Part shown: positions 35,156-62,793 of the stretch, piece by piece
How positions within the stretch are numbered: position 1 is the first letter of the stretch
How the letters are laid out: each line of letters starts with the position of its first letter
Translations under genes and position numbers: made by a program
The notes under the pieces: generated by a model
What the model was told of the DNA's origin: nothing
The model's input: the letters and a program-made list of their open reading frames with translations, nothing else
The model's database searches: none
Source of the DNA: Alphaproteobacteria bacterium
Lineage (GTDB): Bacteria; Pseudomonadota; Alphaproteobacteria; JACZXZ01
Assembly (NCBI GenBank): GCA_035509415.1
Contig: DATJLQ010000096.1
Location: 24,919 to 88,918 of the forward strand
Length of the DNA: 64,000 bases
Direction of reading: 5' to 3'

Positions 35156-35164
35156 TCGCGCGCC

Positions 35165-39221: not shown

Positions 39222-39228
39222 CGCCGGC

Positions 39229-41424: not shown

Positions 41425-41450
41425 CGGCGCATTTGACTCTAGAAACGGAA

Positions 41451-41466
41451 ATTTGATATGTCAAAT
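41451..41466. promoter_or_regulatory. inverted repeat ATTTGA-TATG-TCAAAT (plus upstream TTTGAC half-site) in divergent iorA / VOC intergenic region; candidate operator
   Basis: Read from the sequence. AT-rich island with three TTTGAY/RTCAAA half-sites between 41431 and 41470. Confidence 0.3.
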
Positions 41467-44503: not shown

Positions 44504-45031
44504 CTAGAACGGAATCGACATTGCCTGGTGGACGCCGTCGCAGTCGATCAGATCGACGCGCTTCGATGCGATCTTGAAGCCGCCGTCCGCGAGCCGAAGT
44601 ATATGACTGTAGCGGCCGCTGAACACGCGCCGGCTTTCCTCCCGAAATTCGGACATCAGGAACGCGGACTCGACCGTGCACTCGCGCCGTGCCGGCTCGA
44701 GCGCGGTCACGTCCACGTTGGTGACGAGGTGGGTGGTGCGCGGCATGGGTGCGAGCACGTGGGCGCGCGGGTGCGTGAGGCGGCGCACGCGCATCGCAAG
44801 AAGCGGCAGGTCCTCGTAGACAATGGACGCGACCGCGCGCGGATCGGTCTGACCCGGCCGGCTCGGGACCCAATAGACCGCGTCCGGCGCGAAGAGAGCG
44901 AGCCATTCGTCGAACCGGCCGGCGTCGAGAAGGCGCGCCTCGAGGAACAGAAAGCGCTCGATCTCGTGGCGCCGCTCGGCGCCGACAGTCATCGGATCGT
45001 CGACCGGCGCATGGTCGCGCAGCGAGCTCAT
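44504..45031 (-). CDS. ring-hydroxylating oxygenase beta subunit
   Basis: 175 aa; RHEIERFLFLEARLLDAGRFDEWLALFAPDAVYWVP is a typical small subunit. ATGA overlap with the alpha stop. Confidence 0.8.
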   Translation of the reverse strand: MSSLRDHAPVDDPMTVGAERRHEIERFLFLEARLLDAGRFDEWLALFAPDAVYWVPSRPGQTDPRAVASIVYEDLPLLAMRVRRLTHPRAHVLAPMPRTTHLVTNVDVTALEPARRECTVESAFLMSEFREESRRVFSGRYSHILRLADGGFKIASKRVDLIDCDGVHQAMSIPF

Positions 45032-46380: not shown

Positions 46381-46665
46381 CCGCCCTCCCCTCGCGGCCC
46401 GCGCGCGCTATCCGGCAACCGTGAATTCGCTCCCGGGCCGCATCGGACGAGTATTCCGAACCGTCGGCGTTTTGTCAAAGTCGAATCTTGTTCGGTTATG
46501 AGGAAGGCGATAAGATGGCCGCGTGAGAGGCTAACGCCGCGCCGGCGGCGCCCGAATCCCGCTCATTTCGACCTCGCGGGATCGACGGGTCCAGGCGCGG
46601 CGGCCAGGGGGAGAGATGGCAGCACGCGTGCCGTGCCACGGCGCCGTCATGAGCGGTGCGTGGCC

Positions 46666-47520
46666 ATGAAGGCGCCCGCCTTCGACTACGTCCGTCCGTC
46701 CGATCTCGACGGCGCGCTCGCGTTGCGCGCGCGCTACGGCGACGCCGCGCAATATCTCGCGGGCGGCCAGAGCCTGATGCCCTCCCTTCATTTCCGCGTC
46801 GCGTCACCCCGGCTCTTGATCGACATCAACCGCATCGGGTCGCTCCGCGGCATCGAGCGCCGCGGCGATTTCGTGCGCATCGGCGCGCTCGCGCGTCACG
46901 CCGAGGTCGAGGCATCCGAAATCGTGCGCGCCGACCTGCCGCTGATCGCCGAAGCCGTGCGCCATGTCGCCCATCCCGCGATCCGCAGCCGCGGCACCTT
47001 CGGCGGGAGCCTGGCGCTCGCGGACCCGGCCGCGGAACTGCCGGCTTGCGCGGTCGCGTTGGGTGCCGAAATCGTGGTCGCGGGCCAAGGCGGCATGCGC
47101 CGCGTCGCGGCGCGGGATTTCTTCCGCGGCTTGTTCGAGACCGCGCTCGCGCCGGGCGAAATCGTGGTCGAGGCGACGATTCCACGCCAGGAGGCGCGCC
47201 AGCGCAGCGCGTTCCTGGAGCTCAGCCCCCGTCGCGGCGATTTCGCGACCGTCGGCGTCGCCTGCCAAGCGGATCTCGAGGGCGACAAAGTGTCCGCCCT
47301 GCGCCTCGTCGTGTTCGGCTCCGAGCCCTACCCGCGCGTCGCGCGCCGGGCGCAAGCGGCGGCTGAGGGCGCGCGCTTGGCGCCCGAGCTCGGCGCGCCA
47401 GTCGCCGAGGCGCTCGAGGGGGATCTGGAGCCGATGGCCAACGCGCAAGGCAGTGCCGCCTTCAAACGCCATCTCGCGGCCGTGCTTGCGCGCCGCGCGA
47501 TCGAGCGCATGGCGGCGTGA
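46666..47520 (+). CDS. xanthine-dehydrogenase-family molybdenum hydroxylase, FAD-binding medium subunit (CoxM/CutM-like)
   Basis: 284 aa; LAGGQSLMP...GTFGGSLA is the FAD-binding PCMH fold. Only the C-terminal part of the 829-aa track ORF is real. Confidence 0.85.
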   Translation: MKAPAFDYVRPSDLDGALALRARYGDAAQYLAGGQSLMPSLHFRVASPRLLIDINRIGSLRGIERRGDFVRIGALARHAEVEASEIVRADLPLIAEAVRHVAHPAIRSRGTFGGSLALADPAAELPACAVALGAEIVVAGQGGMRRVAARDFFRGLFETALAPGEIVVEATIPRQEARQRSAFLELSPRRGDFATVGVACQADLEGDKVSALRLVVFGSEPYPRVARRAQAAAEGARLAPELGAPVAEALEGDLEPMANAQGSAAFKRHLAAVLARRAIERMAA

Positions 47521-47527
47521 GCGAAAG

Positions 47528-48073
47528 GTGACGACCATCGAGACCGAGCCCGGCGCCGAGTTCGACATCGCCTGCATGGTCAACGGTCGCGCGGTCCGGG
47601 CGCGCGTGGCGGTGCGCCAGCATCTCGTCGACTTTCTGCGCGAGCGGCTCGGCCTCGCGGGTTCGCGGCTCGGCTGCGAGCACGGGAGCTGCGGCGCCTG
47701 CACGGTGCGGGTCGATGGAGTGCCGGTGCGGGGCTGCCTGATGCTCGCGATCCAGGCCGATGGGGCGGCGATCGAGACCGTCGAGGGCCTGACCGAAAGC
47801 GGCGAGATCGCCGATCTCCAGGCCGCGTTCGTCGCGCGCAACGCGCTCCAATGCGGCTTCTGCACCGCGGGTGTCCTGGTAACCGCGAGCGAACTCCTGC
47901 GCGGGGAGATCCCTTCGACCGACGTCGCGCGCGCCGCGGTGCGCGATTTCCTCTCGGGCAATTTCTGTCGCTGCACCGGCTATCACGCGATCGTCGATGC
48001 CGTATGCATGACCCTCGAGGGACGCCGCGCCGGCGCGCGTCCCGCCGAGGGAACGGGGCTGTGTCATGCTTGA
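47528..48073 (+). CDS. molybdenum hydroxylase [2Fe-2S] small subunit (CoxS-like)
   Basis: CEHGSCGACTV and CGFCTAG...CRCTGY iron-sulfur motifs. GTG start at 47528 is inferred from alignment to CoxS N-termini. Rejected alternative: the first in-frame ATG (MVNG) would remove conserved residues. Confidence 0.8.
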   Translation: MTTIETEPGAEFDIACMVNGRAVRARVAVRQHLVDFLRERLGLAGSRLGCEHGSCGACTVRVDGVPVRGCLMLAIQADGAAIETVEGLTESGEIADLQAAFVARNALQCGFCTAGVLVTASELLRGEIPSTDVARAAVRDFLSGNFCRCTGYHAIVDAVCMTLEGRRAGARPAEGTGLCHA

Positions 48074-50465: not shown

Positions 50466-50486
50466 GGCTTTGCAAGGAATGGGAGA

Positions 50487-51674
50487 ATGCACATGAAACG
50501 TTGGCTAATGACGATCGCGGCGCTCGGCGTCGGCCTGATGGCGATGTCGGCGGCGCAAGCGGCCGAACCGGTCAAGATCGGCTTCTCGATCTCCAAGACC
50601 GGCCTGTTCGCGGCCGGCACGGGTTCGCAGATGGACACCTACGAGCTTTGGAAGGACGAGGTCAACGCGGCCGGCGGGCTCGACGTGAAAGGCGTCAAGC
50701 GCCCGATCGTGTTCGACTACTACGACGACCAGTCGGACCCGAGCAAGGCGGTGCAGATCTACGAGAAGCTGATCACCCAGGACAAGGTCGACCTCCTGCT
50801 CGCACCCTGGGGCACCCCCATGCACATCGCGGTCGCGGGCATCGCCGAGCGCTACAAGTTCCCGATCGTGGGCAATTCGGCCGCCTCGGTTAAGCTGCGC
50901 GAAATCAAGTCGAACTACATGTGGTTCACGACCGCCGAGATGCCCGACCGCTTCGCGCACGCGCTCACGGCGCTCCTGAAGTCGGTCCATAAGACCAAGG
51001 TCGCGCTGATCGCGAACCAGCTGCCCTTCGCCCTCGAGGTGCGCAGCTACCTCGTGCCCGACCTCGAGAAGGCGGGCTTCAAAATCGCGGTCAACGAGGC
51101 CTATCCGCCGGGAATCAAGGACATGACCTCGCTCTTGACCGAGGTGAAGGCGGCCAAGCCCGACGCCGTGCTGGCGTTGACCTACCCCGCGGACACCAGC
51201 CTCTACATGAAGCAGGCGCGCGAGCTCGGCATCGATGCGCCGTTCCAGATGGTGTTGATCGGCGCCACCGAGTCCTGGTTTCCGAAGGAGTTCGGCGCCG
51301 CCGCCAACGGCATCGTGACCATGGCCCACTGGGCGCCGCGCAAGGAATGGCCCAAGGCCCAGGCGTTCTTCGACGCCTATGAGAAGAAGTTCCACGAGGC
51401 TCCCGATTATCTCGACTCCGCCCTCGCCTACATGTCGTGCGAGATCCTGCAGCAGGCGGTGGCGAAGGTCGGGCTCGACCGCGTGGCGATTCGGAACATG
51501 ATCGCGACCCACACCTTCGAGACCATCAACGGTCCGGTCAAGTTCAAGGGCCCGGAGAACATCACCACGCCTGCCGGGATCGTGCAGATCCAGGGCAAGA
51601 ACATGGAGCTGATCTGGCCGCCGAGCATCGAGACGGCGAAGTTCATGCCCAAGCCCGCCTGGCCGGCTCACTGA
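50487..51674 (+). CDS. ABC transporter substrate-binding protein, LivK/branched-chain-amino-acid (type I PBP) family, signal peptide
   Basis: MHMKRWLMTIAALGVGLMAMSAAQA signal plus Leu/Ile/Val-binding-protein fold. Confidence 0.85.
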   Translation: MHMKRWLMTIAALGVGLMAMSAAQAAEPVKIGFSISKTGLFAAGTGSQMDTYELWKDEVNAAGGLDVKGVKRPIVFDYYDDQSDPSKAVQIYEKLITQDKVDLLLAPWGTPMHIAVAGIAERYKFPIVGNSAASVKLREIKSNYMWFTTAEMPDRFAHALTALLKSVHKTKVALIANQLPFALEVRSYLVPDLEKAGFKIAVNEAYPPGIKDMTSLLTEVKAAKPDAVLALTYPADTSLYMKQARELGIDAPFQMVLIGATESWFPKEFGAAANGIVTMAHWAPRKEWPKAQAFFDAYEKKFHEAPDYLDSALAYMSCEILQQAVAKVGLDRVAIRNMIATHTFETINGPVKFKGPENITTPAGIVQIQGKNMELIWPPSIETAKFMPKPAWPAH

Positions 51675-51786
51675 CGCGTGACGCCGGCGCCGGAATCGTG
51701 CTCTCATCCGCGGTGCGGACGGGAGCCGGTCCCGGCGCCGGGTCGCTCGGCGGGCCGCGCTCGAAAATCGGGCGTCGGGGTTTTTC

Positions 51787-52677
51787 GTGCAGATCATCTT
51801 CTCCACGCAATTGCTGTTCGCGGCCCTCGTGATCGGTTCGATCTACGTGCTGGTCGCGGTCGGGCTCAACATGGTGTACGGCACCATGCGCCTCCTCAAC
51901 ATCGCCCATGGCGAGATGGTGATGGCGGGGGCATATACGAGCTACTGGCTGTTCACGCTCGCCGGCGTTTCGCCGCTGCTCTCCATGCTCGTCGCGGCCG
52001 TGCTTTGCGCGGGATTCGGGGCGCTGCTCTATCGCGGCCTATTTCGGCGTCTCCTCAACGACTCCAAGTTCCTCGCCCGGCTCGAGGGCAATTCGCTTTT
52101 GCTGTTCTTCGGCATTTCGATCGTGCTGCAGAATGTGGCGGCACTCCTGTTCCAGCCGACTCCGCGCGGCTATCAGTATCTTGACGGCGTGATCCAGGTC
52201 GCCGACGCATCGATCACCGAGAACAATCTTCTGGCGCTCGTCGTCGCCCTGGTGCTGTGCGGCGCCATCGTGCTGTTCCTCCGCTTCCACATCTACGGGC
52301 TCGCGATCAAGGCGTTGATTCAGCACCGCCAGGGCGCCATGGTGGTCGGCATCGACGTCGAGCGCATTCAGCTGCTGAGCTTCTGCATCGGCTTCGGCAC
52401 CGCCGGCCTCGCCGGCTCGCTGCTCAGCATGATGCAGCAGATCACGCCCTTCATGGGCTTTCCCTTCACGATCGCCTCCTTCGTCGTCGTGATCCTGGGG
52501 GGACTCGGCAATCTCCTGGGCGGCATGGCGGCGGGCGTGCTGCTCGGGGTTCTCGAGACCTACGGCGTCGCCCTCACCTCGCCGAGCCTGCGCTCGGTCC
52601 TGATCTACGGCGTGTTCATTCTCGTGCTGCTGGTGCGGCCCCAGGGCCTCTTGGGCGGGCGGAGGCTCGCGCGATGA
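51787..52677 (+). CDS. ABC transporter permease (LivH-type)
   Basis: 296-aa polytopic BPD_transp_2 protein. Confidence 0.85.
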   Translation: MQIIFSTQLLFAALVIGSIYVLVAVGLNMVYGTMRLLNIAHGEMVMAGAYTSYWLFTLAGVSPLLSMLVAAVLCAGFGALLYRGLFRRLLNDSKFLARLEGNSLLLFFGISIVLQNVAALLFQPTPRGYQYLDGVIQVADASITENNLLALVVALVLCGAIVLFLRFHIYGLAIKALIQHRQGAMVVGIDVERIQLLSFCIGFGTAGLAGSLLSMMQQITPFMGFPFTIASFVVVILGGLGNLLGGMAAGVLLGVLETYGVALTSPSLRSVLIYGVFILVLLVRPQGLLGGRRLAR

Positions 52678-53585
52678 AGCTCCTGCCTGCCGGACTCGGT
52701 CTTGCGTTCCTGCTCGCCGCCATGGCGGCGGTGCCCCAGTTCGCCGACGAGTACATCGTCGGCGTCGCCCTCTCGCTCGCCATGTGGATCGCGCTCACCG
52801 AGAGCTGGGTGCTGCTGTCGGGTCTCACGGGTTACGTCTCGCTCGGCCACGTGGTGTTCTACGGCATCGGCTCCTACGTCGGCGTGCTCGTTTGGCAGCA
52901 GGTGCCGATGTGGCAGATGATCGCGCTCGCCGGTCTCTCGAGCGGGCTGTTCGCGCTCGTGGTGGGGTATCCGGTGCTGCGCGTGCGCGGGCCCTATTTC
53001 GTCATGCTCACCTTCGGCATCGCCGAGCTCGTCAAATTCGTCGTCATCGACATCGAGGCGCAGCTCGGCGAATTCAGCCGGCTCGTCCTCGGCGGTCCGT
53101 CGGTTACCGACCTCTACTACGTCATGCTCGGCATGGCGGCGGCCGCGGTCGTCCTGACCTACGCCGTCGGACGCTCGCGCGCCGGCTACGCGCTGCGCGC
53201 GATCCGCGAGAACGAGGAGGCGGCCGAAACGGTCGGCGTGCCGGTCGCGCGCTACAAGCTCGCGGTGTTCGCGCTCTCGGCCGTGATTCCGGGCATGGTG
53301 GGGGCGGTGATGGCGGTGCGCTCGTCCTATTTCGAGCCGAGCCAGGCGTTCGATCCGGTGATTTCGTTCACCATCGTGACCATGGCGATCATCGGCGGCA
53401 GCGACAACGCGCGTGGCCCGCTCGTGGGCTCGGCGTTCCTCGTCATTCTCTCCGAGCTTCTGTGGGACCGCGCCCCCCAGATGTACATGATCCTGCTCGG
53501 CCTGCTCCTGATCGCGTTCGTGCTGTTCGCGCCGGGCGGCGTGACGGCCTGGCGGCTGCCGCGCTTCGGCGGAGCGCGCCGATGA
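52674..53585 (+). CDS. ABC transporter permease (LivM-type)
   Basis: 303 aa; ATGA overlap with the upstream permease. The track ORF's upstream extension is noise. Confidence 0.85.
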   Translation: MKLLPAGLGLAFLLAAMAAVPQFADEYIVGVALSLAMWIALTESWVLLSGLTGYVSLGHVVFYGIGSYVGVLVWQQVPMWQMIALAGLSSGLFALVVGYPVLRVRGPYFVMLTFGIAELVKFVVIDIEAQLGEFSRLVLGGPSVTDLYYVMLGMAAAAVVLTYAVGRSRAGYALRAIRENEEAAETVGVPVARYKLAVFALSAVIPGMVGAVMAVRSSYFEPSQAFDPVISFTIVTMAIIGGSDNARGPLVGSAFLVILSELLWDRAPQMYMILLGLLLIAFVLFAPGGVTAWRLPRFGGARR

Positions 53586-54310
53586 ACATTCTCGAAGTCG
53601 AAGACCTCTCGATGTCGTTCGGCGGCTTGCAGGCGCTGCGCGACATCAATTTTGCGGTCCCCGCGGGCGAAATTCTGGGCATCATGGGCGCCAATGGCGC
53701 GGGAAAGACCACGCTGTTCGGCCTGATCGCGGGTCACGCCAGGCCGACCGGTGGCGCCATCCGCTTCGAGGGAGTCCGCATCGACGGGCTCAGGCCCGAC
53801 AAGCTGAGCCGCGCCGGAATCGCACGCACCTTCCAGATCGTGAAGCCGTTCGCCGCCATGTCGGTGCTCGACAACGTCGTGGTCGCGGCCCTGTTCGGCG
53901 CACGCCGCGAGCGGCGCCACGCGGCAGCGGAGGCGCGCGCGCGCGAGATCCTCGCCGAGGTCGGGCTCGAGGCGCGCGCGGGCGACCTCGCCGCGTCGCT
54001 CACGCTCTCGGGCCAGAAGCGGCTCGAGATCGCGCGCGCGCTCGCGACCGAGCCGAAGCTCATCATGCTCGACGAGGTGATGGCGGGCCTCACCGCGACC
54101 GAGGTCAACGAGATGTTGGACGCGATCCGCGCGATCAAGGCGCGACGCACGCTCACGATCCTCATTGTCGAGCATGTGATGCGCGCGCTCATGCGCCTTT
54201 CGGACCGCATCCTCGTGCTGCACCATGGCGAGATGATTGCGGAGGGGCCGCCCGCCACGATCGCCGGGGACGCGCGCGTGATCGAAGCCTATCTCGGGCA
54301 GGAGGAATGA
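53582..54310 (+). CDS. ABC transporter ATP-binding protein (LivG-type)
   Basis: GANGAGKTT, LSGQKRLEIARALA. ATGA overlap. Confidence 0.9.
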   Translation: MNILEVEDLSMSFGGLQALRDINFAVPAGEILGIMGANGAGKTTLFGLIAGHARPTGGAIRFEGVRIDGLRPDKLSRAGIARTFQIVKPFAAMSVLDNVVVAALFGARRERRHAAAEARAREILAEVGLEARAGDLAASLTLSGQKRLEIARALATEPKLIMLDEVMAGLTATEVNEMLDAIRAIKARRTLTILIVEHVMRALMRLSDRILVLHHGEMIAEGPPATIAGDARVIEAYLGQEE

Positions 54311-55023
54311 TGGCGCCGCTGCTCTCCCTCGCCGACATCGTCTCGGGTTACGGCGACGTGCTGGTGCTGCACGGCGTCTCCCTCGACGTCGCGCCCGGCT
54401 CGATTACCGCGCTCCTGGGGAGCAACGGCGCGGGCAAGACGACGTTGCTCAAGACGATCGCGGGCCTGATCGTTGCGCGCGCGGGCGTCATGCGCTTCGA
54501 GGGCGCCGAGATCGGCGCGTTGCGCAGCAGCCAGCGCGTCGAGCACGGCATCGTGCTGGTGCCGGAGGGGCGCATGATCTTTCCCGACATGAGCGTCGAG
54601 GAGAATTTGCGCGTGGGCGCCTTCGCGCCCAAGGCGCGCGTCGGCACGGCACGCGGACTCGAGCGCGTCTATGCGAAGTTCCCGCGCCTCAAGGAACGGC
54701 GCAACCAGGCGGGCGGCACGCTGTCGGGCGGCGAGCAGCAGATGCTTGCGCTCGGCCGTGGCCTCATGGCCGAGCCGCGCCTCCTGCTCCTCGACGAGCC
54801 GACGCTCGGTCTAGCGCCGATCGTGACGCGCGCCATCTTCGATACCATCCAGGAGCTGCGCGGCGAGGGTTTGACCATCTTCCTGGCCGAGCAGGATGCG
54901 CGCCGCACGCTCGCGATCGCGGACCGCGCCTACGTGCTCGAGAACGGCCGCGGCGTCATGGCGGGAACCGGGGCCGAGCTCCTCGCCGACCCGCAGATCA
55001 ACGCGGCTTATCTGGGCATATGA
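54307..55023 (+). CDS. ABC transporter ATP-binding protein (LivF-type)
   Basis: GSNGAGKTT, LSGGEQQMLALGRGL. ATGA overlap. Confidence 0.9.
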   Translation: MMAPLLSLADIVSGYGDVLVLHGVSLDVAPGSITALLGSNGAGKTTLLKTIAGLIVARAGVMRFEGAEIGALRSSQRVEHGIVLVPEGRMIFPDMSVEENLRVGAFAPKARVGTARGLERVYAKFPRLKERRNQAGGTLSGGEQQMLALGRGLMAEPRLLLLDEPTLGLAPIVTRAIFDTIQELRGEGLTIFLAEQDARRTLAIADRAYVLENGRGVMAGTGAELLADPQINAAYLGI

Positions 55024-55946
55024 TCCTTATCTTCCGCGCTGCGCGCCGGAGACGGGATGGACACATGGCGGGACCGAAGATATTTCTCGATTACGACCAG
55101 GCGGCGCTCGATGCGGCCTACGATCAGCTCGCCTACGCGCCGAACCGCGACCAGGTGCTGGCGCGCTATGCGGCGGCGAGCGAGGCGATGCGGGCGCGAC
55201 TGGGCGAGCCCCAGCGTCTTGCCTATGGACCGAGCGAGGTCGAGCGCCTCGACTTCTATTCGGCGCGAACCGCGCGCGCGCCGATCGAGATTTTCCTCCA
55301 CGGCGGCGCCTGGCGCCGCGGCCGCGCGCGCGATTACGGCTTCCCCGCCGAGATGTTCAATGCCCACGGCTTGCATTACGCCGCACTCGATTTCGTCGCC
55401 GTCGAGGCCGCGCCCGACGGTCTGCGCACCATGGCGGACCAGGTGCGGCGCGCGATCGCCTGGCTCCACGCCCACGCGGCCGAGTTCGGCGGGGATCCGG
55501 ATCGGCTCTATCTCACGGGTCATTCCTCGGGCGCGCACCTCGCGGCCGTCCTGCTCACGACCGATTGGACGACGCAACACGGGTTGCCGCGCGATCTCGT
55601 CAAGGGCGGCCTGTGCGTGAGCGGCATGTACGACCTTCTGCCGGTGAGCCTCTCCGCGCGCAGCCGCTACGTGCCGTTCGACGACCGGGTGATCGAGAGC
55701 CTGAGCCCCCGGCGCCATGTAAGCCGTCTCGCGGCCGCCCTCGTGGTCGCGCACGGTTCCCTCGAGACGCCCGAGTTCCAGCGCCAGGCGCAGGATTTCG
55801 CGGCTGCGGTCGCGGGCGCGGGGAAGCCGGTCGAAAGCCTGCGTCTCGAGGGCTACAATCATTTCGAGATGCTCGAGACCTACGGCAGTCCCGATGGCGT
55901 CCTGGGCCGCGCGGCACTCGCGCGCGCGCACGCGCAAGCACCTTAA
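55020..55946 (+). CDS. alpha/beta-hydrolase (esterase/formamidase-like; NicD / N-formylmaleamate-deformylase-like or arylformamidase-like)
   Basis: HGGAW oxyanion motif and nucleophile elbow GHSSG. ATGA overlap with the LivF-type ATPase stop. Alternative start MAGPKIF at 55065. Confidence 0.75.
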   Translation: MILIFRAARRRRDGHMAGPKIFLDYDQAALDAAYDQLAYAPNRDQVLARYAAASEAMRARLGEPQRLAYGPSEVERLDFYSARTARAPIEIFLHGGAWRRGRARDYGFPAEMFNAHGLHYAALDFVAVEAAPDGLRTMADQVRRAIAWLHAHAAEFGGDPDRLYLTGHSSGAHLAAVLLTTDWTTQHGLPRDLVKGGLCVSGMYDLLPVSLSARSRYVPFDDRVIESLSPRRHVSRLAAALVVAHGSLETPEFQRQAQDFAAAVAGAGKPVESLRLEGYNHFEMLETYGSPDGVLGRAALARAHAQAP

Positions 55947-55964
55947 CGCGAGTATTGCTCGTTA

Positions 55965-55992
55965 TTGACCGCGGCGGCGCGCGTGCTAGAAT
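55965..55992 (+). promoter_or_regulatory. sigma70-like promoter: -35 TTGACC, 16-nt spacer, -10 TAGAAT
   Basis: Read from the sequence, about 70 nt upstream of the ATG at 56065. It is the only near-consensus -35/-10 pair found in the long plus-strand array. Confidence 0.35.
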
Positions 55993-56064
55993 GGCGCCGT
56001 CGGTCGGCGCGGCGGGACGCGACCCGCGCCGCCGTCCGGATCACCAGCGACGGGGGAGGACGAG

Positions 56065-57144
56065 ATGCACCAGGCCGGCCTGCGCGCGCAGGAGCTCAAC
56101 CCGGGCAAGCTCACGGGCTTGTTCGTGCGCCAGTTCAAGCTCTGCAACGTCAAGAAGGGCGAGACGGTCGCTTGCGTGACCGATCTTGCGACCCGGCGCG
56201 AATTCGTCGAGGCGGCCTTCGCCGCGAGCGAGGAGCTCGGCGCCGACGTCTACGAAATGTGCGTCAACCTGGTTCCCGGCTGGACCAAGGTGGGCGTGCC
56301 CACGATCGGGCGCTGCAAAGGCACGCTCGAGGCGCTCGCCAAGGCGGACATCATCGTCATCTTCCACGTGCCGCTGTTCTCGAGCTGGCTCAAGGACGTG
56401 CGCAAAGCGGGCGTGCGCGTGCTCATGATCATCGACGCGCCGGACGATCTCGAGGAGCTCATGTCGCCGCCCGGCCTCAAGGAGGCGGTACAGCACGGCC
56501 ACGAGCTGTATGCGCGCACCAAGACCGCGCGCGTCACCTCGGACGCCGGCACCGATCTCCACTGGACCTGCGGCGACTTCCCGGTGATGAGCCAATACGG
56601 CTATGCCGACCTTCCGGGCCGCTTCGACCACTGGGGCGCCGGACACGTGCACACGTTCCCGAACGAGGGCACCGCCAACGGCACGGTCGTGATGCAGCCG
56701 GGCGACATCGTGATCCTGCCCTATTGCCGCTACGTCCAGGACCCGGTGCAGCTTACGATCCGCGACGGCTTCATCGTCAAGGTCGAAGGCGGGCTCGATG
56801 CGAAGCTCATGACCTCCTGGCTCGACGACAACAAGCTCGCGTCCGACGATCGCGATCCCTACGCGGTATCCCATCTCGGCTGGGGCCTCAATCCGCAAGC
56901 GCCCTGGTACTGGATGGGGCTCCAGGGCGACGTGCCCGAGCGCGCGCGCGCGGCGGCGCGCGTCTTCGCCGGAAATTTCCTGTTCTCGACCGGCCCCAAC
57001 AGCGAGGGCGGCGGCAATCGACGCACGCGCGGTCATTACGACGTGCCGATGCGCGACTGCTCCTTCTTCCTCGACGGAACGATGATCATCGACAAGGGCC
57101 GCGTCGTCGATCCCAAGATGATCGTCGAGCGCGTTCGGCACTGA
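56065..57144 (+). CDS. hypothetical protein, tentatively NicX-like (2,5-dihydroxypyridine 5,6-dioxygenase / aminopeptidase-T-fold family)
   Basis: 359-aa ORF with good coding statistics and its own promoter. The family assignment rests on size, the His/Asp-rich C-terminal half (HWGAGHVHTFPNEG...HLGWG) and the gene context (formamidase-like hydrolase plus Mo-hydroxylases). It is not verified. Confidence 0.5.
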   Translation: MHQAGLRAQELNPGKLTGLFVRQFKLCNVKKGETVACVTDLATRREFVEAAFAASEELGADVYEMCVNLVPGWTKVGVPTIGRCKGTLEALAKADIIVIFHVPLFSSWLKDVRKAGVRVLMIIDAPDDLEELMSPPGLKEAVQHGHELYARTKTARVTSDAGTDLHWTCGDFPVMSQYGYADLPGRFDHWGAGHVHTFPNEGTANGTVVMQPGDIVILPYCRYVQDPVQLTIRDGFIVKVEGGLDAKLMTSWLDDNKLASDDRDPYAVSHLGWGLNPQAPWYWMGLQGDVPERARAAARVFAGNFLFSTGPNSEGGGNRRTRGHYDVPMRDCSFFLDGTMIIDKGRVVDPKMIVERVRH

Positions 57145-57213
57145 AATGGGCGCCGGCGCCCCGGCCCCGCGCGCGGCGCTCGTCCGACGGGGATTGCCGA
57201 TGAGGACCGCCCG

Positions 57214-57714
57214 ATGAGGATCGAAGGCGCCTTCCGGATCGCCGCCCCGCGCGCCGAGGTGTGGAAGCGCATCACCGACCCCGCGCTCATGGCCTCCTGC
57301 GTCCCCGGCTGCGAGGCGATCGAGCGGCAGTCGCCGACGCGCTACGGCGCGCGCGTCAAGCTCGCGGTCGGGCCGATCAAGGCGAGTTTCAACCTTGTCG
57401 TCGAGGTCGTGCGCGAGGAACCGCCCGAGCGCGTGCGGTCGACGACGCGCGGCGAGGAGGGAAGCCGCGCCAGCATCGTCTCGGCCGAGAACGTGGTGGC
57501 GCTCGTCGAAATCGACCCGGTGACGACCGAGGTGAGTTACAGCTCGGACGTCTCCGTGACGGGCCGGCTTGGAAAGTTCGGCCTCGGCGTCATGAGGAAA
57601 AAGGCGGAATCCATGGGGGCCGACTTCGTCGCGGCCTTTCGCGCGCGCGTCGAAGACGCCGGGGCGGCCGCCGGCGCCGCGCCGGCGGGCGCCGTCGCCG
57701 AAGGTGGCCGATGA
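57214..57714 (+). CDS. SRPBCC-family CoxG-like protein (carbon-monoxide-dehydrogenase subunit G family)
   Basis: MRIEGAFRIAAPRAEVWKRITDPALMASCVPGCEAIE is the CoxG signature N-terminus. Confidence 0.75.
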   Translation: MRIEGAFRIAAPRAEVWKRITDPALMASCVPGCEAIERQSPTRYGARVKLAVGPIKASFNLVVEVVREEPPERVRSTTRGEEGSRASIVSAENVVALVEIDPVTTEVSYSSDVSVTGRLGKFGLGVMRKKAESMGADFVAAFRARVEDAGAAAGAAPAGAVAEGGR

Positions 57715-58559
57715 GCGGGGTCGCGCTCGCCCGCGCGCGCAGCCTCGAGGAAGCGCTCGAGCTTCTCGCGGCCGATCCCGAGGCCAGGCCGCTCGCGGGC
57801 GGCGCCTCGCTGGTCGCGATGATGAATGCGGGCCTCGTCGCCCCCACCACACTGGTGAGCTTGCGCGACGTCGAAGCTCTCCGCGGCATCCGCCCGCGCG
57901 AAGACGGCACGGTCCGCATTGGCGCCATGACGCGCCACTGCGAGAGTGCCGCGGCGGCCGAGCTCTCGGGCACGCTGGCGACCTTGCGCGCGGCGGCGCG
58001 CCGCATCGCCAATCCGGTCGTGCGCAACATGGGTACCATCGGAGGCTCGATCGCGCTCTCCGACCCGGGCGCCGATTATCCGCCCGCCCTCGTGGCCCTC
58101 GATGCCGAGATCGAGATCGCGTCCCTTACCGGCGCCCGGCGCGTCCCGGCACGCGCGTTCTTCGTCGACTGGTACGCGACCGCGCTCGAGCCCGGCGAGC
58201 TCGTGACGGCGATCCATCTGCCGGCGCCCCGGCCCGGGATCGGGATCTACCGCAAGCTCGCGCGCGTCGCGGGCGATTTCGCGACCGTCTCGGTCGCCCT
58301 GAGCGCCGGCGAGGATGGTCGCGTCTCGGTCGCGATCGGCGGCTCTGGGCCGGCTCCGGTCGTGAGCGACGAGGCGAACGAATTGCTTTCCGAGACGCTC
58401 GACGATCCGCGCGCCGTCGCGCGCGCGGGCGAGAGCTTGGCGGCGCGATCCGATCCGGTCGACGACGTGCGCGCGAGTGCGGCGTATCGCCGGCGCGTCA
58501 TCCCACGCCTTCTCGCCGAGGTCGCCCGGGCCGCGCGTCTGCAAGGCGCCGCGGCGTGA
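57711..58559 (+). CDS. molybdenum hydroxylase FAD-binding medium subunit (second set)
   Basis: 282 aa; ATGA overlap with the CoxG-like gene's stop; AGGASLVAMMN...GTIGGSIA. Confidence 0.85.
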   Translation: MSGVALARARSLEEALELLAADPEARPLAGGASLVAMMNAGLVAPTTLVSLRDVEALRGIRPREDGTVRIGAMTRHCESAAAAELSGTLATLRAAARRIANPVVRNMGTIGGSIALSDPGADYPPALVALDAEIEIASLTGARRVPARAFFVDWYATALEPGELVTAIHLPAPRPGIGIYRKLARVAGDFATVSVALSAGEDGRVSVAIGGSGPAPVVSDEANELLSETLDDPRAVARAGESLAARSDPVDDVRASAAYRRRVIPRLLAEVARAARLQGAAA

Positions 58560-59023
58560 GCGCCTTCATTCTCAACGTCAACGGGTCGCAGCGCCAGGTC
58601 GAGGCCGCGGGCGACGCGACCCTGCTCACGGTGTTGCGCGACGGGCTCGAGCTCACCGGCGCGAAGCGCGGCTGCAACCAAGGTGTGTGCGGCGCCTGCA
58701 CGGTGGCGCTCGACGGCGCGCCGGTGCGCGCCTGTCTTTCGATCGCGGCCAATTGCGAGGGCCAGGAGATCGTGACCGTCGAGGGCCTCGCGCGCGACCC
58801 GATCGGTGCCGCGCTCCGGAAATCCTTCGCCGAGTGTGGCGCCGTGCAGTGCGGCTTCTGCACGCCCGGCATGTTGATGGCGGCACGGCGCCTCCTCGCC
58901 GATGGCCTGCGGCCCGACACGGACCAAATCCGCGCCGGTCTTTCGGGCAACCTGTGCCGCTGCTCGGGCTATCGCAAGATCGTCGACGCGGTGCATCGCG
59001 CGGCGGAGGCGTTGGCCCCATGA
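58556..59023 (+). CDS. molybdenum hydroxylase [2Fe-2S] small subunit (second set)
   Basis: GTG start overlapping the medium-subunit stop (GTGA); CNQGVCGACTV and CGFCTPG...CRCSGY. Confidence 0.82.
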   Translation: MSAFILNVNGSQRQVEAAGDATLLTVLRDGLELTGAKRGCNQGVCGACTVALDGAPVRACLSIAANCEGQEIVTVEGLARDPIGAALRKSFAECGAVQCGFCTPGMLMAARRLLADGLRPDTDQIRAGLSGNLCRCSGYRKIVDAVHRAAEALAP

Positions 59024-61344
59024 GCGTCGCCGGTCTCGGCCAGCGCCTGCCGCGCCTCGAGGTCGCCGAGAAGCTCGCCGGCCGGGCACAGTACATCGCC
59101 GATCTCAGCCGGCCCGGCATGCTCCATGGCGCGATCCTCGGCTCGCCCCATGCGCATGCGCGCATCAAGGGCTACGACACCGCGGCCGCGTGCGCGATGC
59201 CGGGCGTCCACGCTGTCCTCACCGGCGCCGATTTCCCCGACGGCCGCATGGGAGCCTTCATCAAGGACGAGCACGCGATCGCGAAGGACAAGGTGCGCTA
59301 TCTGGGCGAGCCGGTGGCCGCGGTCGCGGCCGAAACGGAAGCCGCGGCGCGCGCCGCGGCGCAGGCCATCATCGTCGAATACGAGGAATTGCCGTCGATT
59401 CTCACGCCCGAGGCGGCGCTCGAGCCCGGGGCAGCCGTGATCCACGAGGAGCTCGCCGGCTATTTCAAGGTGTTCGACGCGGGAAGCGAGGGGAACGTCT
59501 GCTCGCGTACTTTCTTCTCCGAGGGCGACGTGGAGGCAGCCTGGGCCGACTGCGACCTCGTGCTCGAGGACCGCTACGAGACCCCGCCCCAGGCCCATGT
59601 CGCGATCGAGCCTTGCGGTGCCCTCGCCGAAGTCGACGCCCAGGGACGCGTGACGCTCTGGTCCGCCAACCAGTCGGTGTTCCGGGTCCAGGCGAATGTC
59701 TGCGAGAGCCTGAAGCTGCCGATGACGCGCCTGCGCTCCCTGACGCCGCGTGTCGGCGGCGGGTTCGGCAACAAGATGGAGCCGCACATCCAACCCATCG
59801 CCGTGCAACTGGCGCTCGCGACCGGCCGACCGGTCAAGCTGATCCTCAGCCGCGAGGAGGATTTCGAGATCGTGCGCGCGCGCCACCCCTTCAAGCTCCG
59901 GGTCAAGACCGGCGCCAAGAAGGACGGCACCTTCGTCGCGCGCGAGGTCGAGGTGCTGCTCGACGGCGGCGCCTACGCCGACGACAGCCCGGGCGTGCTC
60001 GGCTACAGCCTCCTCATGTCGCGCGGGCCCTACCGGTTTCCGCACGCGAAGGCGCACGGCACCCTCGTCTATACCAACAAGCTGCGCTTCGGCGCCTTCC
60101 GCGGCTTCGGCCAGCCCCAGGTTCAGTTCGGCGCCGAGCAGCAGATCGACGAGATCGCGCGCTGTCTCGGCATCGACCCATTCGACATTCGGCGCATGAA
60201 CGCGCTCGCACCCGGCGATCCCTGGTTCGGCGGCGCGCGCGTCGGCTCGAACGGCCTCGGCCAGTGCCTCGATGCGGTCGAGACGGCGAGCGGGTGGAAG
60301 GACCGAGCGGCGCGCAAATCGAAACCCGGCAAGCGCCGCGCCATGGGCGTGGCGGCCAGCGCGCATATTTCGGGGCTGCTCGGAACCGGTGCCATCGTCC
60401 GCATGCTCGAGGACGGCACGATCGTTCTCAATACCGGGGCCGTCGACATTGGCCAGGGGTCGGATACGGTCCTCACCCAGCTCGTGTGCGAGACGCTCAA
60501 GCTGCCGCTCGAGCGCGTCTCGATCGCGAGCCCGGACACCGACGGCTCGCCCTTCAATTGGGGCACGACCGCAAGCCGCGTCACCTTCACGACCGGCCGC
60601 TCCGTGGTCGGCGCCGCGCGCGAGGTCGAGACGCGCATTCTCGAGCACGCGGCCGAGATCTTCGAATGCGCGGCCCAGGATGTCGAGCTGCGCGACGGCG
60701 GCCGGGTCGGCATCAAGGGCGTGGCCGGGAAGGAGCTGCCCTTCGCCGCGATCGCGGCGCGCGCGCATTGGGCCAAGGGAGGCCCGATCGTGGGCACCCA
60801 TAGCTGGGTCTACGACCAGAAGACCATCGACCCGAAGCGCGCGGTCGCGCGCGGCGTGCCGTTCCCGCAAATCGGTGCTTTCGCGTTCGGCGCCATTGCG
60901 GTCGAGCTCGAGGTCGACGAGGCGACCGGCGAGGTCGAGCCGCTCGAGGCCTGGTCCGCGGTCGATGTGGGAAAGGCGATCAACCCGCAGGCGGTCGAGG
61001 GTCAGATCGAGGGCGCCTTCGCCCAGGGGCTTGGCTTCGCGCTCTCGGAGGAGATGGTGTGGGACGGCGCGCGCCTCGCGAACCCGACCATGATGGACTA
61101 CAAGATCCCGACCGCGCTCGACGTGCCCTATGGCATCCATTCGATCATCGTCGAAGCGCCCGATCCGGACGGTCCCTTCGGCGCCAAGGGTTGCGGCGAG
61201 ATCGGCATCAACGGCGTCGCGGCCGCGGTCGCGAACGCGGTCGCGGCGGCGATCGGCAGGCGCCTCCATAGGTTGCCGCTCAAGCCCGAGCGCGTGCTCG
61301 CGGCCCTGCTCGGCGACGAGCACGGCGATGGCGCGGGCGATTGA
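59020..61344 (+). CDS. molybdenum hydroxylase large subunit, XDH/aldehyde-oxidase family (second set)
   Basis: 774 aa. Loop GAFRGFGQPQ is not the CODH type. ATGA overlap with the small subunit. Confidence 0.88.
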   Translation: MSVAGLGQRLPRLEVAEKLAGRAQYIADLSRPGMLHGAILGSPHAHARIKGYDTAAACAMPGVHAVLTGADFPDGRMGAFIKDEHAIAKDKVRYLGEPVAAVAAETEAAARAAAQAIIVEYEELPSILTPEAALEPGAAVIHEELAGYFKVFDAGSEGNVCSRTFFSEGDVEAAWADCDLVLEDRYETPPQAHVAIEPCGALAEVDAQGRVTLWSANQSVFRVQANVCESLKLPMTRLRSLTPRVGGGFGNKMEPHIQPIAVQLALATGRPVKLILSREEDFEIVRARHPFKLRVKTGAKKDGTFVAREVEVLLDGGAYADDSPGVLGYSLLMSRGPYRFPHAKAHGTLVYTNKLRFGAFRGFGQPQVQFGAEQQIDEIARCLGIDPFDIRRMNALAPGDPWFGGARVGSNGLGQCLDAVETASGWKDRAARKSKPGKRRAMGVAASAHISGLLGTGAIVRMLEDGTIVLNTGAVDIGQGSDTVLTQLVCETLKLPLERVSIASPDTDGSPFNWGTTASRVTFTTGRSVVGAAREVETRILEHAAEIFECAAQDVELRDGGRVGIKGVAGKELPFAAIAARAHWAKGGPIVGTHSWVYDQKTIDPKRAVARGVPFPQIGAFAFGAIAVELEVDEATGEVEPLEAWSAVDVGKAINPQAVEGQIEGAFAQGLGFALSEEMVWDGARLANPTMMDYKIPTALDVPYGIHSIIVEAPDPDGPFGAKGCGEIGINGVAAAVANAVAAAIGRRLHRLPLKPERVLAALLGDEHGDGAGD

Positions 61345-61348
61345 GGCA

Positions 61349-62176
61349 ATGCGCGAGTCCGACTACCCGCCCCAGGAGCCGCTCTCGGACTTTGCCCGTC
61401 CCTACCGGGACGCGTGCGTCGAGCGCTCCACGGGCATCTCGTTCGACGAGATCGCCTATGGCGACGATCCCTATCAGCGCGTCGCGATCTATCCCGCGCC
61501 GCGGCCGAACGGGACCGTGCTCGCCTTCGTCCATGGCGGCGGCTGGACCAGCGGATACAAGGAGTGGATGGGCTTCATGGCGCCGGCGCTCGCGACGCAA
61601 GGCGTTCTGTTCGCCTCGATCGGCTATCGCCTGGCGCCCGCGCACGTCTTTCCCACAGGCCTCGACGATGTCGCGGCGGCGATCGCGGCGATCGAAAAGT
61701 CGGCGTCGCGCTGGGGCGGCGACGGGCGACGGCTCTTCATCGGCGGCCATTCGGCGGGCGGTCATTACACGTCGCTGCTCGCGGTGCGCCGCGATTGGCA
61801 GAGCCTCCACGGCTTGCCCCACGACGCGATCCGGGGCTGTCTTCCGATCTCGGGCGTATACCGTTTCGGCGCGGGCTCGGGCCTCTCGATGCGACCGCGC
61901 TTCCTCGGGCCCGAGAGCGCGGCGCTCGAGCGCGCGGCGAGCCCGATTCTCAATATCCAGGGCACGCCGCCGCCGTTTTTGATCGCCCACGGCGACAGGG
62001 ACTTCCCTCATCTCGTAACCCAGGCCGTCGAGATGGAGGCGGCGCTACGCGCGGCTGGAGGCGCGGTCGAGCGGCTCGTGCTCGCGGGCTGCGACCATCT
62101 CGGCGCGAGCCTCGCGGCGGGCGACGCGAACGGGCCGTGGGTCCCGCGCGCCGCCGACTTCATGGCGCGACATTAG
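61349..62176 (+). CDS. alpha/beta-hydrolase (HGGGW / GHSAG esterase-type)
   Basis: Paralogous in motif layout to the hydrolase at 55020. Alternative start at 61328 would overlap the large-subunit gene by 17 nt. Confidence 0.72.
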   Translation: MRESDYPPQEPLSDFARPYRDACVERSTGISFDEIAYGDDPYQRVAIYPAPRPNGTVLAFVHGGGWTSGYKEWMGFMAPALATQGVLFASIGYRLAPAHVFPTGLDDVAAAIAAIEKSASRWGGDGRRLFIGGHSAGGHYTSLLAVRRDWQSLHGLPHDAIRGCLPISGVYRFGAGSGLSMRPRFLGPESAALERAASPILNIQGTPPPFLIAHGDRDFPHLVTQAVEMEAALRAAGGAVERLVLAGCDHLGASLAAGDANGPWVPRAADFMARH

Positions 62177-62793
62177 GGCCGCGCGCCGTCCTTCCCGAGG
62201 ATCAGGTCGCACATCGCCTCGATCGTCGCGTCGGGGCAGACGCGCTCGGGCGCGAGGTGAGCCTGCATGACGAAGCCGTCATAGGCCATCATCAGCACGT
62301 GGGCGAAACCGCTTGCTGCGAGCTTCCGATAGCGCGCGGGCGGCACCGCGTCCTTGATCATTGCCTCGATGCGCGCCTCGACCCAGGCGAGCAGCTCGGG
62401 GCGGTAGCGATCCGGCCGGCCGAGCGTGCTCAGCGCCTGCATGAGATTGTTGGTGAAGCCGTTATCCTCGCGCGGCAGGTCGCGCCAGAGCGCCTCGAGG
62501 AGGCGCCGAAGCCGCGCGCGCGGCTCGGGCACGCGCGCGACCGCGCCCTCGAGACGCGCGATGCGCGCGCGCAGCCAGGGCTCGAAGAGATGGGAGAGGA
62601 TGTCGAATTTCGAGTCGAAATAATTATAGAGATTGGCCTCGGCGATGTGCGCGCCGGCCGCGACCTGGGCCGTGGTGGTCGCGACGTATCCCTTGCGCTT
62701 GAAGAGGCGATAGGCGCTCTTGAGGATCGCCTCCCGCACTTCGGTCTTCTTGGTCTGCGCCACGGGGCCCCCGTCGGCAAAAGCGAGCGGCAC
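62173..62793 (-). CDS. TetR-family transcriptional regulator
   Basis: HTH TTAQVAAGAHIAEANLYNYFDSKFDIL. Convergent 4-nt overlap with the hydrolase. Confidence 0.8.
   Translation of the reverse strand: MPLAFADGGPVAQTKKTEVREAILKSAYRLFKRKGYVATTTAQVAAGAHIAEANLYNYFDSKFDILSHLFEPWLRARIARLEGAVARVPEPRARLRRLLEALWRDLPREDNGFTNNLMQALSTLGRPDRYRPELLAWVEARIEAMIKDAVPPARYRKLAASGFAHVLMMAYDGFVMQAHLAPERVCPDATIEAMCDLILGKDGARP

Follow-up and report, generated by a model that had tools for sequence, protein, structure and literature searches.

Nicotinate, picolinate, quinolinate, dipicolinate, vitamin B6, alkaloids and many agrochemicals all contain pyridine rings, whose characterized mineralization follows a handful of routes, nearly all of which run through NicX and the maleamate pathway. 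The nic cluster of Pseudomonas putida KT2440 (nicAB, nicC, nicX, nicD, nicF, nicE and nicR), which encodes the maleamate pathway, combines a molybdenum (Mo) hydroxylase with NicX-type Fe(II) ring cleavage and an α/β-fold hydrolase; its hydroxylase, NicAB, is a two-component enzyme that contains cytochrome c domains. Alcaligenes faecalis JQ135 has a pic cluster (picA1A2A3, picB1-4, picC and picD-G) with a three-component Mo dehydrogenase beside a Rieske oxygenase of large and small subunits, with a NicX-type dioxygenase and a deformylase acting downstream, and characterized pic clusters place PicA (Mo) next to PicB (Rieske oxygenase) (bioRxiv 10.1101/530550). In the 3hpd cluster of Ensifer adhaerens HP1 (HpdA1A2A3A4), a single hydroxylation feeds the ring-cleavage enzyme: a Mo hydroxylase of Ensifer with a separately encoded SRPBCC protein makes 2,5-dihydroxypyridine from 3-hydroxypyridine (bioRxiv 10.1101/2020.01.08.898148). 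Here, we analyzed positions 24,919 to 88,918 of contig DATJLQ010000096.1 (GenBank assembly GCA_035509415.1), a 64,000-nucleotide (nt) stretch from an uncultured soil alphaproteobacterium (hereafter the window, in whose coordinates all positions are given). An earlier note, made from the sequence alone, had described in it a co-directional catabolic array with two Mo-hydroxylase sets, an importer, two hydrolases, a NicX-like gene and a CoxG-like gene. In its working the locus resembles the nic, pic and 3hpd systems, although it belongs to none of them, and it is probably a composite of two juxtaposed N-heteroaromatic catabolism operons that converge on NicX-type ring cleavage.

The array comprises 15 co-directional genes on the + strand, in the order M1-S1-L1 (the FAD, [2Fe-2S] and molybdopterin subunits of Mo-hydroxylase set 1), a LivK-type substrate-binding protein (SBP), LivH-LivM-LivG-LivF, an α/β hydrolase (Hyd1), the NicX-like gene, the CoxG-like gene, M2-S2-L2 (set 2) and a second α/β hydrolase (Hyd2). 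Genes were selected by reading frame and third-position G+C bias (the G+C content of the window is 65–72% throughout), and an independent metagenome gene call on the source contig agrees. The window's open reading frames (ORFs), their unambiguous Pfam domains and the independent call all bear out the array of the earlier note, with coordinates that are the same or a few bases off. The note had also taken the array for a single unit that starts at M1, and this view did not hold in either respect: two independently conserved modules are found side by side, and the functional unit reaches upstream to ~41.5 kb, where the note had left out the VOC, MR/MLE, TetR and Rieske oxygenase α and β genes. 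Module 1 spans ~41.5–55.0 kb (VOC, MR/MLE, TetR, Rieske α and β, set 1 and the LivK-type importer), and module 2 spans 56.1–62.8 kb (NicX-like, CoxG, set 2, the Abhydrolase_3 hydrolase Hyd2 and a second TetR).

The two modules recur separately. In 185,579 species genomes, 80 loci (designated here by L numbers) were found to carry close relatives of the NicX-like gene, 67–80% identical by tblastn. Orthologs of Hyd2 (at least 49% identical) were the most frequent neighbor of this clade (34 of 80 loci), and orthologs of the module-2 regulator TetRb (at least 40%) were present in 30 of 80, usually divergent from NicX. CoxG was found in 23 loci, L2 orthologs (50–73% identical) in 21 and a homologous LivK-type SBP in 19; the full module-2 set including the SBP occurred in 16 of the 80, and several of these loci are ordered TetR / NicX-CoxG-M-S-L-Hyd2-SBP-LivHMGF. 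Where an L2 ortholog was present, it was accompanied by CoxG in 19/21 loci and by a LivK-type importer in 18/21. Among cultured bacteria, Hwanghaeella sp. 1Z406 carries all five module-2 genes, and Falsiroseomonas oryzae MO-31 and Bradyrhizobium sp. dw_411 carry partial sets. Set 1 is absent from the module-2 loci, the M1 and L1 matches of 30–37% identity there being cross-matches to set 2; L080 alone pairs an L1-like set (43–55% identity) with NicX-like and Hyd2-like genes. Module 1, in turn, recurs without NicX in six loci (L085/L087, L086, L088, L090 and L091), as an arrangement of VOC, MR/MLE, sometimes TetR, Rieske β and α, M-S-L or L alone, and a transporter. Its genes are 50–83% identical across loci, and the M and S genes of set 1 are not in every locus.

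Compared with the nic cluster, the window lacks NicC, NicD, NicE and NicF. The canonical proteins, taken from two genuine nic clusters, gave no tblastn match with E ≤ 1e-3 in the 64 kb; the earlier note had reported NicC, NicF and NicE as missing, which we confirmed, and NicD is absent as well. Across the 80 clade loci, canonical NicD and NicE were found in none (0/80), and NicF-like and NicC-like matches were rare and weak. In contrast, the maleamate-pathway genes are present in the four plasmid-borne canonical nic clusters that we examined (Azospirillum lipoferum 4B, Pseudosulfitobacter, Mesorhizobium AR07 and Rhizobium SU303), in which the regulator belongs to the MarR family, whereas here it is a TetR. 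The window hydroxylases are three-subunit M-S-L enzymes, unlike the two-component NicAB, and the NicX-like protein is 36–38% identical to canonical NicX with six changes at or near the substrate contacts.

In module 1, M1-S1-L1 is divergent from the Rieske α and β genes, an arrangement kept in the module-1 loci; this match to the PicA–PicB pairing of pic clusters is one of architecture only. Pfam scans of the called ORFs revealed no PicC decarboxylase, PicF, PicG or ferredoxin/reductase genes, and no Amidohydro_2, isochorismatase or Asp/Glu racemase domain in the window ORFs. Moreover, PicA has an SRPBCC domain fused to its [2Fe-2S] subunit, whereas no such domain accompanies set 1, and set 2 comes with a separately encoded CoxG. 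This last trait is shared with 3hpd, as are an adjacent gene for a 2,5-dihydroxypyridine dioxygenase-type enzyme, an ABC transporter and the single hydroxylation that, as proposed here, feeds the ring-cleavage enzyme. However, the gene order is Mo-FeS-SRPBCC-FAD in 3hpd and CoxG-FAD-FeS-Mo in the window, HpdA3 has a predicted twin-arginine translocation (TAT) signal peptide and a transmembrane segment where the CoxG-like protein has an SRPBCC domain and a short tail, and the 3hpd cluster includes the maleamate-pathway genes hpdB, hpdC, hpdD and hpdE. QorMSL of P. putida 86 and HcrABC of Thauera aromatica share the M-S-L architecture and provide the nearest solved structures to L1 and L2, respectively; the similarity is at the family level only, with NCBIfam scores under the cut-offs and no CoA ligase. 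The layout is thus unlike the canonical nic and pic clusters, as the earlier note had it, and no description of this gene combination was found in the literature searched.

The NicX-like gene (56065–57144, + strand) encodes an Fe(II) ring-cleavage dioxygenase of a variant clade. Its product matches P. putida NicX (PDB 7cn3, E = 2.6e-63) over residues 14–351, near its full length; it had no match in our local Pfam and NCBIfam copies, and its source database tag is PF26233:NicX. An unrelated fold, which the earlier note had named as a way in which its reading could fail, does not apply: the protein is a true NicX homolog with all four Fe ligands. Residues were mapped on the basis of the NicX structure paper (PMC7910607). 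The ligands H265, S302, H318 and D320 of NicX correspond to H270, S308, H324 and D326 of the window protein and are invariant in 79/79 clade members, and C76, L104, H189 and E308 of NicX are also kept in the window protein.

The substrate-binding residues differ. In NicX, the hydrogen-bond network to the substrate is formed by His105-Glu177-His189, E177 contacts the substrate, the E177A variant of the P. putida enzyme keeps 2.7% activity and the H105F variant was reported active (PMC7910607). In the window protein this network is not conserved: H189 is retained, but Q takes the place of E177 (in 79/79 members of the clade) and F that of H105. Because three canonical NicX proteins have F105 and H105F is active, F105 is not diagnostic of the clade. 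The signature M175/Q177/F187/G191/H194/H196, by contrast, is invariant in the 79 extracted proteins, whereas the canonical set (P. putida NicX and the NicX of the four nic clusters) uniformly has V175/E177/W187/P191/F194/F196. The changed residues between positions 187 and 196, which flank H189, probably line the pocket. Given these changes, the substrate may differ from 2,5-dihydroxypyridine. Clade members share 56% identity or more with one another (median, 72%) but no more than 39% with canonical NicX. As judged from these sequences, the NicX-like protein belongs to a distinct, previously undescribed branch of NicX. In protein databases the closest relatives carry generic names, such as 'xanthine dehydrogenase family protein' and 'hypothetical protein', or the automatic label '2,5-dihydroxypyridine 5,6-dioxygenase', and public metagenomes hold more than 100 protein clusters (at 90% identity) that are at least 69% identical to the NicX-like protein of the window. 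On a plasmid of Rhodococcus pyridinivorans YF3, from a quinoline-degrading reactor, we also observed a 'hypothetical' NicX homolog with Gln at position 177 (L093, 7998–9011), which lies among Rieske α and β, ferredoxin, short-chain dehydrogenase/reductase, C-N hydrolase, isochorismatase and maleate-isomerase genes and may represent a third NicX context.

Both Mo-hydroxylase sets carry all M-S-L domains of the xanthine dehydrogenase (XDH)/CO dehydrogenase (CODH) family, with E-values of 1e-13 to 1e-79. Set 2 consists of M2 (57711–58559, +; 282 amino acids [aa]; FAD_binding_5 and CO_deh_flav_C), S2 (58556–59023, +; 2x[2Fe-2S], Fer2 and Fer2_2), which overlaps M2 by GTGA, and L2 (59020–61344, +), whose Pfam domains are those of L1. 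It is preceded by the CoxG-like gene (57214–57714, +; Pfam COXG PF06240, 5.6e-21), the product of which is probably an accessory or fourth subunit of set 2; this match confirmed the name given in the earlier note. The CoxG-like protein has 166 aa, an SRPBCC domain and a short Ala/Gly-rich tail, and its gene overlaps M2 by ATGA. A ring-opening role for it, by analogy with HpoH or the 'polyketide cyclase' of pAO1, was rejected, since those proteins are PF04199 KynB-like cyclases unrelated to SRPBCC.

L1 and L2 are 33% identical, and each has the FRGxG motif and the catalytic Glu (FRGIG at 373 and GVGEAG at 745 in L1; FRGFG at 360 and GCGEIG at 724 in L2). Neither carries AYRCSFR (form I), AYRGAGR (form II) or YRC, and their scores against the NCBIfam CO dehydrogenase models (464–492 bits for L1 and 304–344 bits for L2) are far from the cut-offs of 950–991 bits; we accordingly rejected CO dehydrogenase, in agreement with the earlier note, which had called both sets non-CODH hydroxylases of the XDH family. 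The best PDB match of L1 was QorL of quinoline 2-oxidoreductase (1t3q_B, E = 1.5e-141), followed by CoxL/CutL proteins, and that of L2 was HcrA (1rm6_A, E = 5.6e-128), with QorL second (1.7e-86). The note's further assignment to the N-heterocycle hydroxylase type is therefore supported for set 1, whose L1 is nearest to quinoline 2-oxidoreductase, but not for set 2. The best NCBIfam models for L2 were HcrA, XdhA and PucD. We rejected an identification of set 2 as HcrABC, given that L2 scored 584 bits against a cut-off of 995 (TIGR03194) and M2 scored 107 against 405, with no CoA ligase present. In the comparison with the HcrB profile (TIGR03195), M2 matched in two stretches, of which the reported one covered profile positions 160–311, and the match of M1 ended at position 116; the skipped part of the profile presumably holds the insertion that forms the [4Fe-4S] loop. 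A tblastn search of 72,556 plasmids found no relative of L2 or of the NicX-like protein above 38–39% identity (38% at most for L2), and orthology of either to characterized plasmid-borne genes was rejected on this basis.

Hyd1 (55020–55946, +; start at 55065 in the independent call) and Hyd2 (61349–62176, +; start at 61328 in that call) are serine hydrolases of the Abhydrolase_3/BD-FAE (HSL) family by Pfam, paralogs that share 33% identity. Their motifs are HGGAW and GHSSG in Hyd1 and HGGGW and GHSAG in Hyd2. Hyd1 matched a lipase (9n8r, 3.3e-27) and, at 6.6e-9, the kynurenine formamidase of Drosophila (4e11), and the best match of Hyd2 was an esterase (4zrs, 4.4e-19). Thus, the 'formamidase-like' hydrolases of the earlier note are Abhydrolase_3 enzymes with intact catalytic motifs, but the formamidase match of Hyd1 is weak and lipases and esterases score above it. 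Neither protein showed detectable likeness to NicD. Orthologs of Hyd1 occur near NicX-like genes in L003 (62%) and L005 (47%) only.

Across the clade, the constant partners of the NicX-like gene are an Abhydrolase_3 hydrolase and some Mo hydroxylase, which fits a 'lower pathway' pair with variable upstream steps. Other settings include sugar-type or NitT/TauT-type ABC systems, or the NicX-like gene alone. In gammaproteobacterial metagenome-assembled genomes (L009, L019–L026, L035, L036, L046, L049 and L053), a different M-S-L set, with an L ~35% identical to L2, comes after the NicX-like gene, along with genes for a small protein of the MoaD/ThiS type and a TonB-dependent receptor; a flavin monooxygenase, an aminotransferase and an aldehyde dehydrogenase are encoded upstream. 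In L096 (10001–21080; NicX-like protein 80% identical), the order is NicX-M-S-L-Hyd2 without CoxG, followed by TetR, and a second NicX-family paralog is fused into a LivK-importer operon. In a module-2 locus in JGI 3300043331, Hyd2 is separated from the SBP by two genes, one of the Amidohydro_1/3 and one of the ADI/DDAH-like type. Upstream, this locus has a Bmp-type ABC system (a nucleoside or purine type), a hydantoinase A/B/gamma set and an isochorismatase, and its 320-kb contig bears a module-1-like locus as well.

Module 2 ends with the gene for TetRb (62173–62793, −; TetR_N). Next to it, an old yellow enzyme (OYE)-type flavin oxidoreductase (62852–64000, −; Oxidored_FMN) runs off the window and has 487 aa on the source contig. 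It is possibly associated with module 2, and an ortholog (71%) directly adjoins the NicX-like gene in L037. As a speculation, such an ene-reductase could reduce a maleamate-type double bond and so replace the missing isomerase.

Module 1 begins with a VOC/glyoxalase-family protein of 133 aa (41546–41947, +; Pfam Glyoxalase), whose start codon was chosen among alternatives and which is 69–83% identical to the product of the gene at the same position in L085, L086, L088 and L090. The MR/MLE enzyme of the enolase superfamily (42629–43801, +; 390 aa; MR_MLE_C) is 61–69% identical to its counterparts in L085, L086, L088, L090 and L091, and its nearest NCBIfam model, talarate/galactarate dehydratase, gave a score far under the cut-off. 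The regulator TetRa (43771–44400, −; TetR_N) has orthologs beside Rieske genes in L086 (66%) and L088 (52%). The Rieske oxygenase is encoded by genes for a small β subunit (44504–45031, −; Ring_hydroxyl_B), which overlaps the stop codon of the α gene by 4 nt, and a large α subunit (45028–46380, −; Rieske and Ring_hydroxyl_A); the two are 50–65% and 57–71% identical, respectively, among module-1 loci. Because the NCBIfam models nearest to the α subunit are BenA, HcaE and AntA, all under their cut-offs, we grouped it with oxygenases of carboxylated aromatics, a general type to which PicB belongs as well. It is also 39% identical to the product of a Rieske 2Fe-2S protein gene on plasmid pCAR1, presumably antA.

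Set 1 comprises M1 (46666–47520, +; FAD_binding_5 and CO_deh_flav_C; 66% identical in L085), S1 (47528–48073, +; 2x[2Fe-2S], Fer2 and Fer2_2; 68% in L085) and L1 (48066–50465, +; Ald_Xan_dh_C [hammerhead] and MoCoBD_1/2), orthologs of which (58–68%) are confined to module-1 contexts. It is followed by the importer, all five components of which were found, as in the earlier note: the LivK-type periplasmic SBP (50487–51674, +; Peripla_BP_6), with a signal-like N-terminus, and the permease and ATPase genes at 51787–55023 (+), namely LivH (51787–52677), LivM (52674–53585), LivG (53582–54310) and LivF (54307–55023), whose three internal junctions are all ATGA overlaps and which are 72–75% identical in L085. 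With a Peripla_BP_6 SBP, two BPD_transp_2 permeases and two ABC_tran ATPases, one of them with BCA_ABC_TP_C, the system is of the HAAT (LivKHMGF) type. Since its proteins are 72–75% identical to those of a module-1 locus and 55–68% identical to the compared module-2 importers, we assign it to module 1; for the SBP, the values are 72% for L085 and 58–59% for three compared module-2 loci. The SBP scored 76 bits against 477, far under the cut-offs for the LivJ/K and urea-SBP models, which suggests that its ligand is not one of the known ones. In L088 and L091, a TRAP DctPQM system stands in place of the LivK-type ABC system, which argues for a carboxylate substrate of module 1. The earlier note had regarded the SBP as the likely receptor for the heterocyclic acid; an acid substrate fits the TRAP replacement, but the importer is not that of the NicX module.

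The earlier note had also described almost every junction of the array as ATGA- or GTGA-coupled, which somewhat overstates the case. Among the 14 junctions, seven are 4-nt ATGA or GTGA overlaps and one is an 8-nt overlap, so that 8/14 overlap, but the remaining six are gaps of 4, 7, 21, 69, 112 and 118 nt. A scan for promoter-like sites returned four, compared with 0.9 expected. The promoter that the note had placed ahead of the NicX-like gene was recovered: TTGACC-16-TAGAAT at 55965–55992, which has a TG extension, is the best σ70-like match on the + strand. An operator-like imperfect palindrome, GCGAGTATTGCTCGTTATTGAC (55948–55969), is found at a single place in the window, where it overlaps the −35 hexamer, giving a promoter/operator region at 55948–55992 (+). 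In ~12 module-2 loci, a motif that is partly alike stands at the position of GCGAGTATTGCTCGTTATTGAC and likewise overlaps the −35 hexamer ahead of NicX, for example AACGAAT-N5-ATTTGGTATTGACA or ...GTTCGGTATTGACA.

A second such region lies between the divergent Rieske genes and M1 (46450–46499), with a promoter-like site on the − strand (TTGACA-17-AATACT, 46478–46450) overlapped by the element TGTCAAAGTCGAATCTTGTTCGGTTAT (46473–46499), which is kept in L085 and L086 and resembles the operator-like motif ahead of NicX in module-2 loci. TetRa and TetRb are paralogs with 39% identity. These features point to at least two transcription units that are presumably run by paralogous repressors with related operators. 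The 8-mer CGAGTATT occurs twice in the 64 kb, once in each promoter/operator region (46448–46455 and 55949–55956). Two or more occurrences arose by chance in 13% of shuffles, and we did not rely on this repeat.

In the mechanism that we propose for the two juxtaposed operons, the LivK-type ABC system of module 1 would import an aromatic or heteroaromatic carboxylic acid, the Qor-like M1-S1-L1 would hydroxylate it next to the ring nitrogen and the BenA/AntA-type Rieske α/β oxygenase would oxygenate the product, following the logic of PicA plus PicB. The MR/MLE and VOC proteins may act later, under the control of TetRa from the divergent promoters at ~46.45–46.50 kb. In module 2, CoxG-assisted M2-S2-L2 would hydroxylate a hydroxypyridine-type compound to a para-diol of the 2,5-dihydroxypyridine type, for which a 3-hydroxypyridine-type compound would be the most economical guess as substrate, and the variant NicX Fe(II) dioxygenase would open the ring, as in HpdA/NicX, from its own promoter/operator at 55.95–55.99 kb under TetRb. 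Hyd2, and perhaps Hyd1, may then remove an N-acyl (formyl) group, standing in for the unrelated NicD. Since module 2 lacks a separate importer in the window and comes directly after that of module 1, it may use this importer or accept a product of module 1. The missing importer, the ATGA overlap of Hyd1 with LivF, the related operators and the pairing in L080 suggest a functional link between the modules. We infer the order of the reactions, the deformylase role, the link and the substrates from the gene content and the homologies described above.

Several results weigh against this composite pathway. The nearest solved relative of L2 is 4-hydroxybenzoyl-CoA reductase, which is no N-heterocycle enzyme, and the changes E177Q, V175M, W187F, P191G, F194H and F196H are invariant at or beside the substrate contacts of the NicX-like protein. 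The PEP-utilizing or PPDK-like partners that HpdA needs were found in none of the scanned window ORFs, and the Pfam scans of the called ORFs likewise gave neither a ferredoxin/reductase partner for the Rieske oxygenase nor a PicC-type decarboxylase. Nor does the locus encode a maleamate amidase or a maleate isomerase that would process the ring-cleavage product further, and no tested gene of either module reached a curated NCBIfam cut-off. Finally, the two closest NicX-like relatives examined (80 and 82% identical) do not have the composite arrangement, and hence the juxtaposition could be incidental.

We therefore considered how else the gene content might be explained. A Mo hydroxylase that is paired with a Rieske oxygenase in the manner of pic clusters could belong to a single integrated pathway for one pyridinecarboxylic acid, in which the SBP would serve for import, M1-S1-L1 (PicA-like) for C6 hydroxylation, the Rieske oxygenase (PicB-like) for a para hydroxyl with or without decarboxylation, the NicX-like protein (PicD-like) for cleavage and Hyd1/Hyd2 (PicE-like) for deformylation, while set 2 would widen the substrate range. 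The co-directional genes and the ATGA coupling of LivF to Hyd1 are consistent with such a pathway, as are the lack of an importer in this copy of module 2 (compared with 18/21 L2-ortholog loci that have one), the related operator-like elements with their paralogous TetRs, and the L080 pairing of an L1-like set with NicX-like and Hyd2-like genes. However, the modules recur separately, none of the six examined module-1 loci holds NicX, and the two closest examined NicX-like relatives have no module 1 nearby. PicC-type decarboxylase, PicF and PicG are lacking, set 2 is a conserved partner of the NicX-like gene and not an accessory, and the NicX operon has a separate promoter, all of which make a single pathway rather unlikely. 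The same independence, together with an own promoter and an own TetR for each module and a surrounding window that is a mosaic of unrelated genes, would also be expected of two metabolically unconnected neighboring operons, one (module 2) for a hydroxypyridine and the other (module 1) for an aromatic acid that is carbocyclic or bicyclic. This is less probable still, given that module 2 lacks its usual importer at the very place where the homologous one of module 1 (~58% identity) abuts it, that Hyd1 is translationally coupled to LivF and that the modules share similar operator-like motifs.

It is very improbable that set 2 acts on a non-pyridine (an aryl-CoA or a purine) and that the NicX-like protein cleaves a non-pyridine para-diol. 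The best matches of L2 (HcrA in the PDB; HcrA, XdhA and PucD in NCBIfam), the AMP-ligase genes beside the cluster in L004, L058 and L060, and the Bmp-type importer, isochorismatase and amidohydrolase near one module-2 locus would agree with such substrates, but the scores are far under the cut-offs (584 against 995), M2 matches HcrB in two stretches only and skips part of the profile, and neither a CoA ligase (in the window or in most module-2 loci) nor uricase or allantoin genes were found. To our knowledge, the sole characterized substrate of the NicX family is a pyridine. A further proposal can be offered tentatively, as one that we hold to be somewhat improbable: this second widespread NicX clade may cleave another dihydroxy-N-heterocycle, such as a carboxylated, N-alkylated or trihydroxylated pyridine, and may bypass the maleamate pathway in concert with an HcrA-like Mo hydroxylase, assisted by CoxG, and a deacylase of the Abhydrolase_3 family.

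Both modules are surrounded in the window by a mosaic of catabolic and transport genes. A molybdopterin oxidoreductase of the DMSO-reductase family adjoins a TRAP transporter (a DctM fusion and DctP) and an IclR gene at 12373–17653 (−), a group that is unrelated to the present finding. Two hydantoinase/oxoprolinase A and B pairs flank a second Rieske α gene (27178–31302, −; 30992–32524, +; 32768–37222, +). The hydantoinase A/B family recurs beside module 1 in L088 and L091 and beside one module-2 locus, but the window copies are only 31–37% identical to those of L091 and not orthologous to them, and we accordingly rejected the pairs as members of module 1. Directly upstream of the VOC gene lies a two-gene 2-oxoacid:ferredoxin oxidoreductase of the indolepyruvate type (TPP_enzyme_C; POR and DUF6537; 37623–41460, −). 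Among the called upstream ORFs, Pfam scans detected no isochorismatase, Asp/Glu racemase or FAD monooxygenase.

These results call for caution in reading co-directional arrays as single pathways, as two independently mobile modules appear to be fused here. The recurrent module 2 joins a distinct NicX clade to a different hydroxylase and a hydrolase, without the usual downstream genes, at ~20 related loci. If the proposed bypass of the maleamate pathway is true, a route without NicD, NicE and NicF would be common in soil and marine Proteobacteria. Assignment of the substrate would annotate many genes that are now listed as 'xanthine dehydrogenase family' or 'hypothetical' in soil and marine Alpha-, Beta- and Gammaproteobacteria, and might reveal a new fate of the ring-cleavage product.

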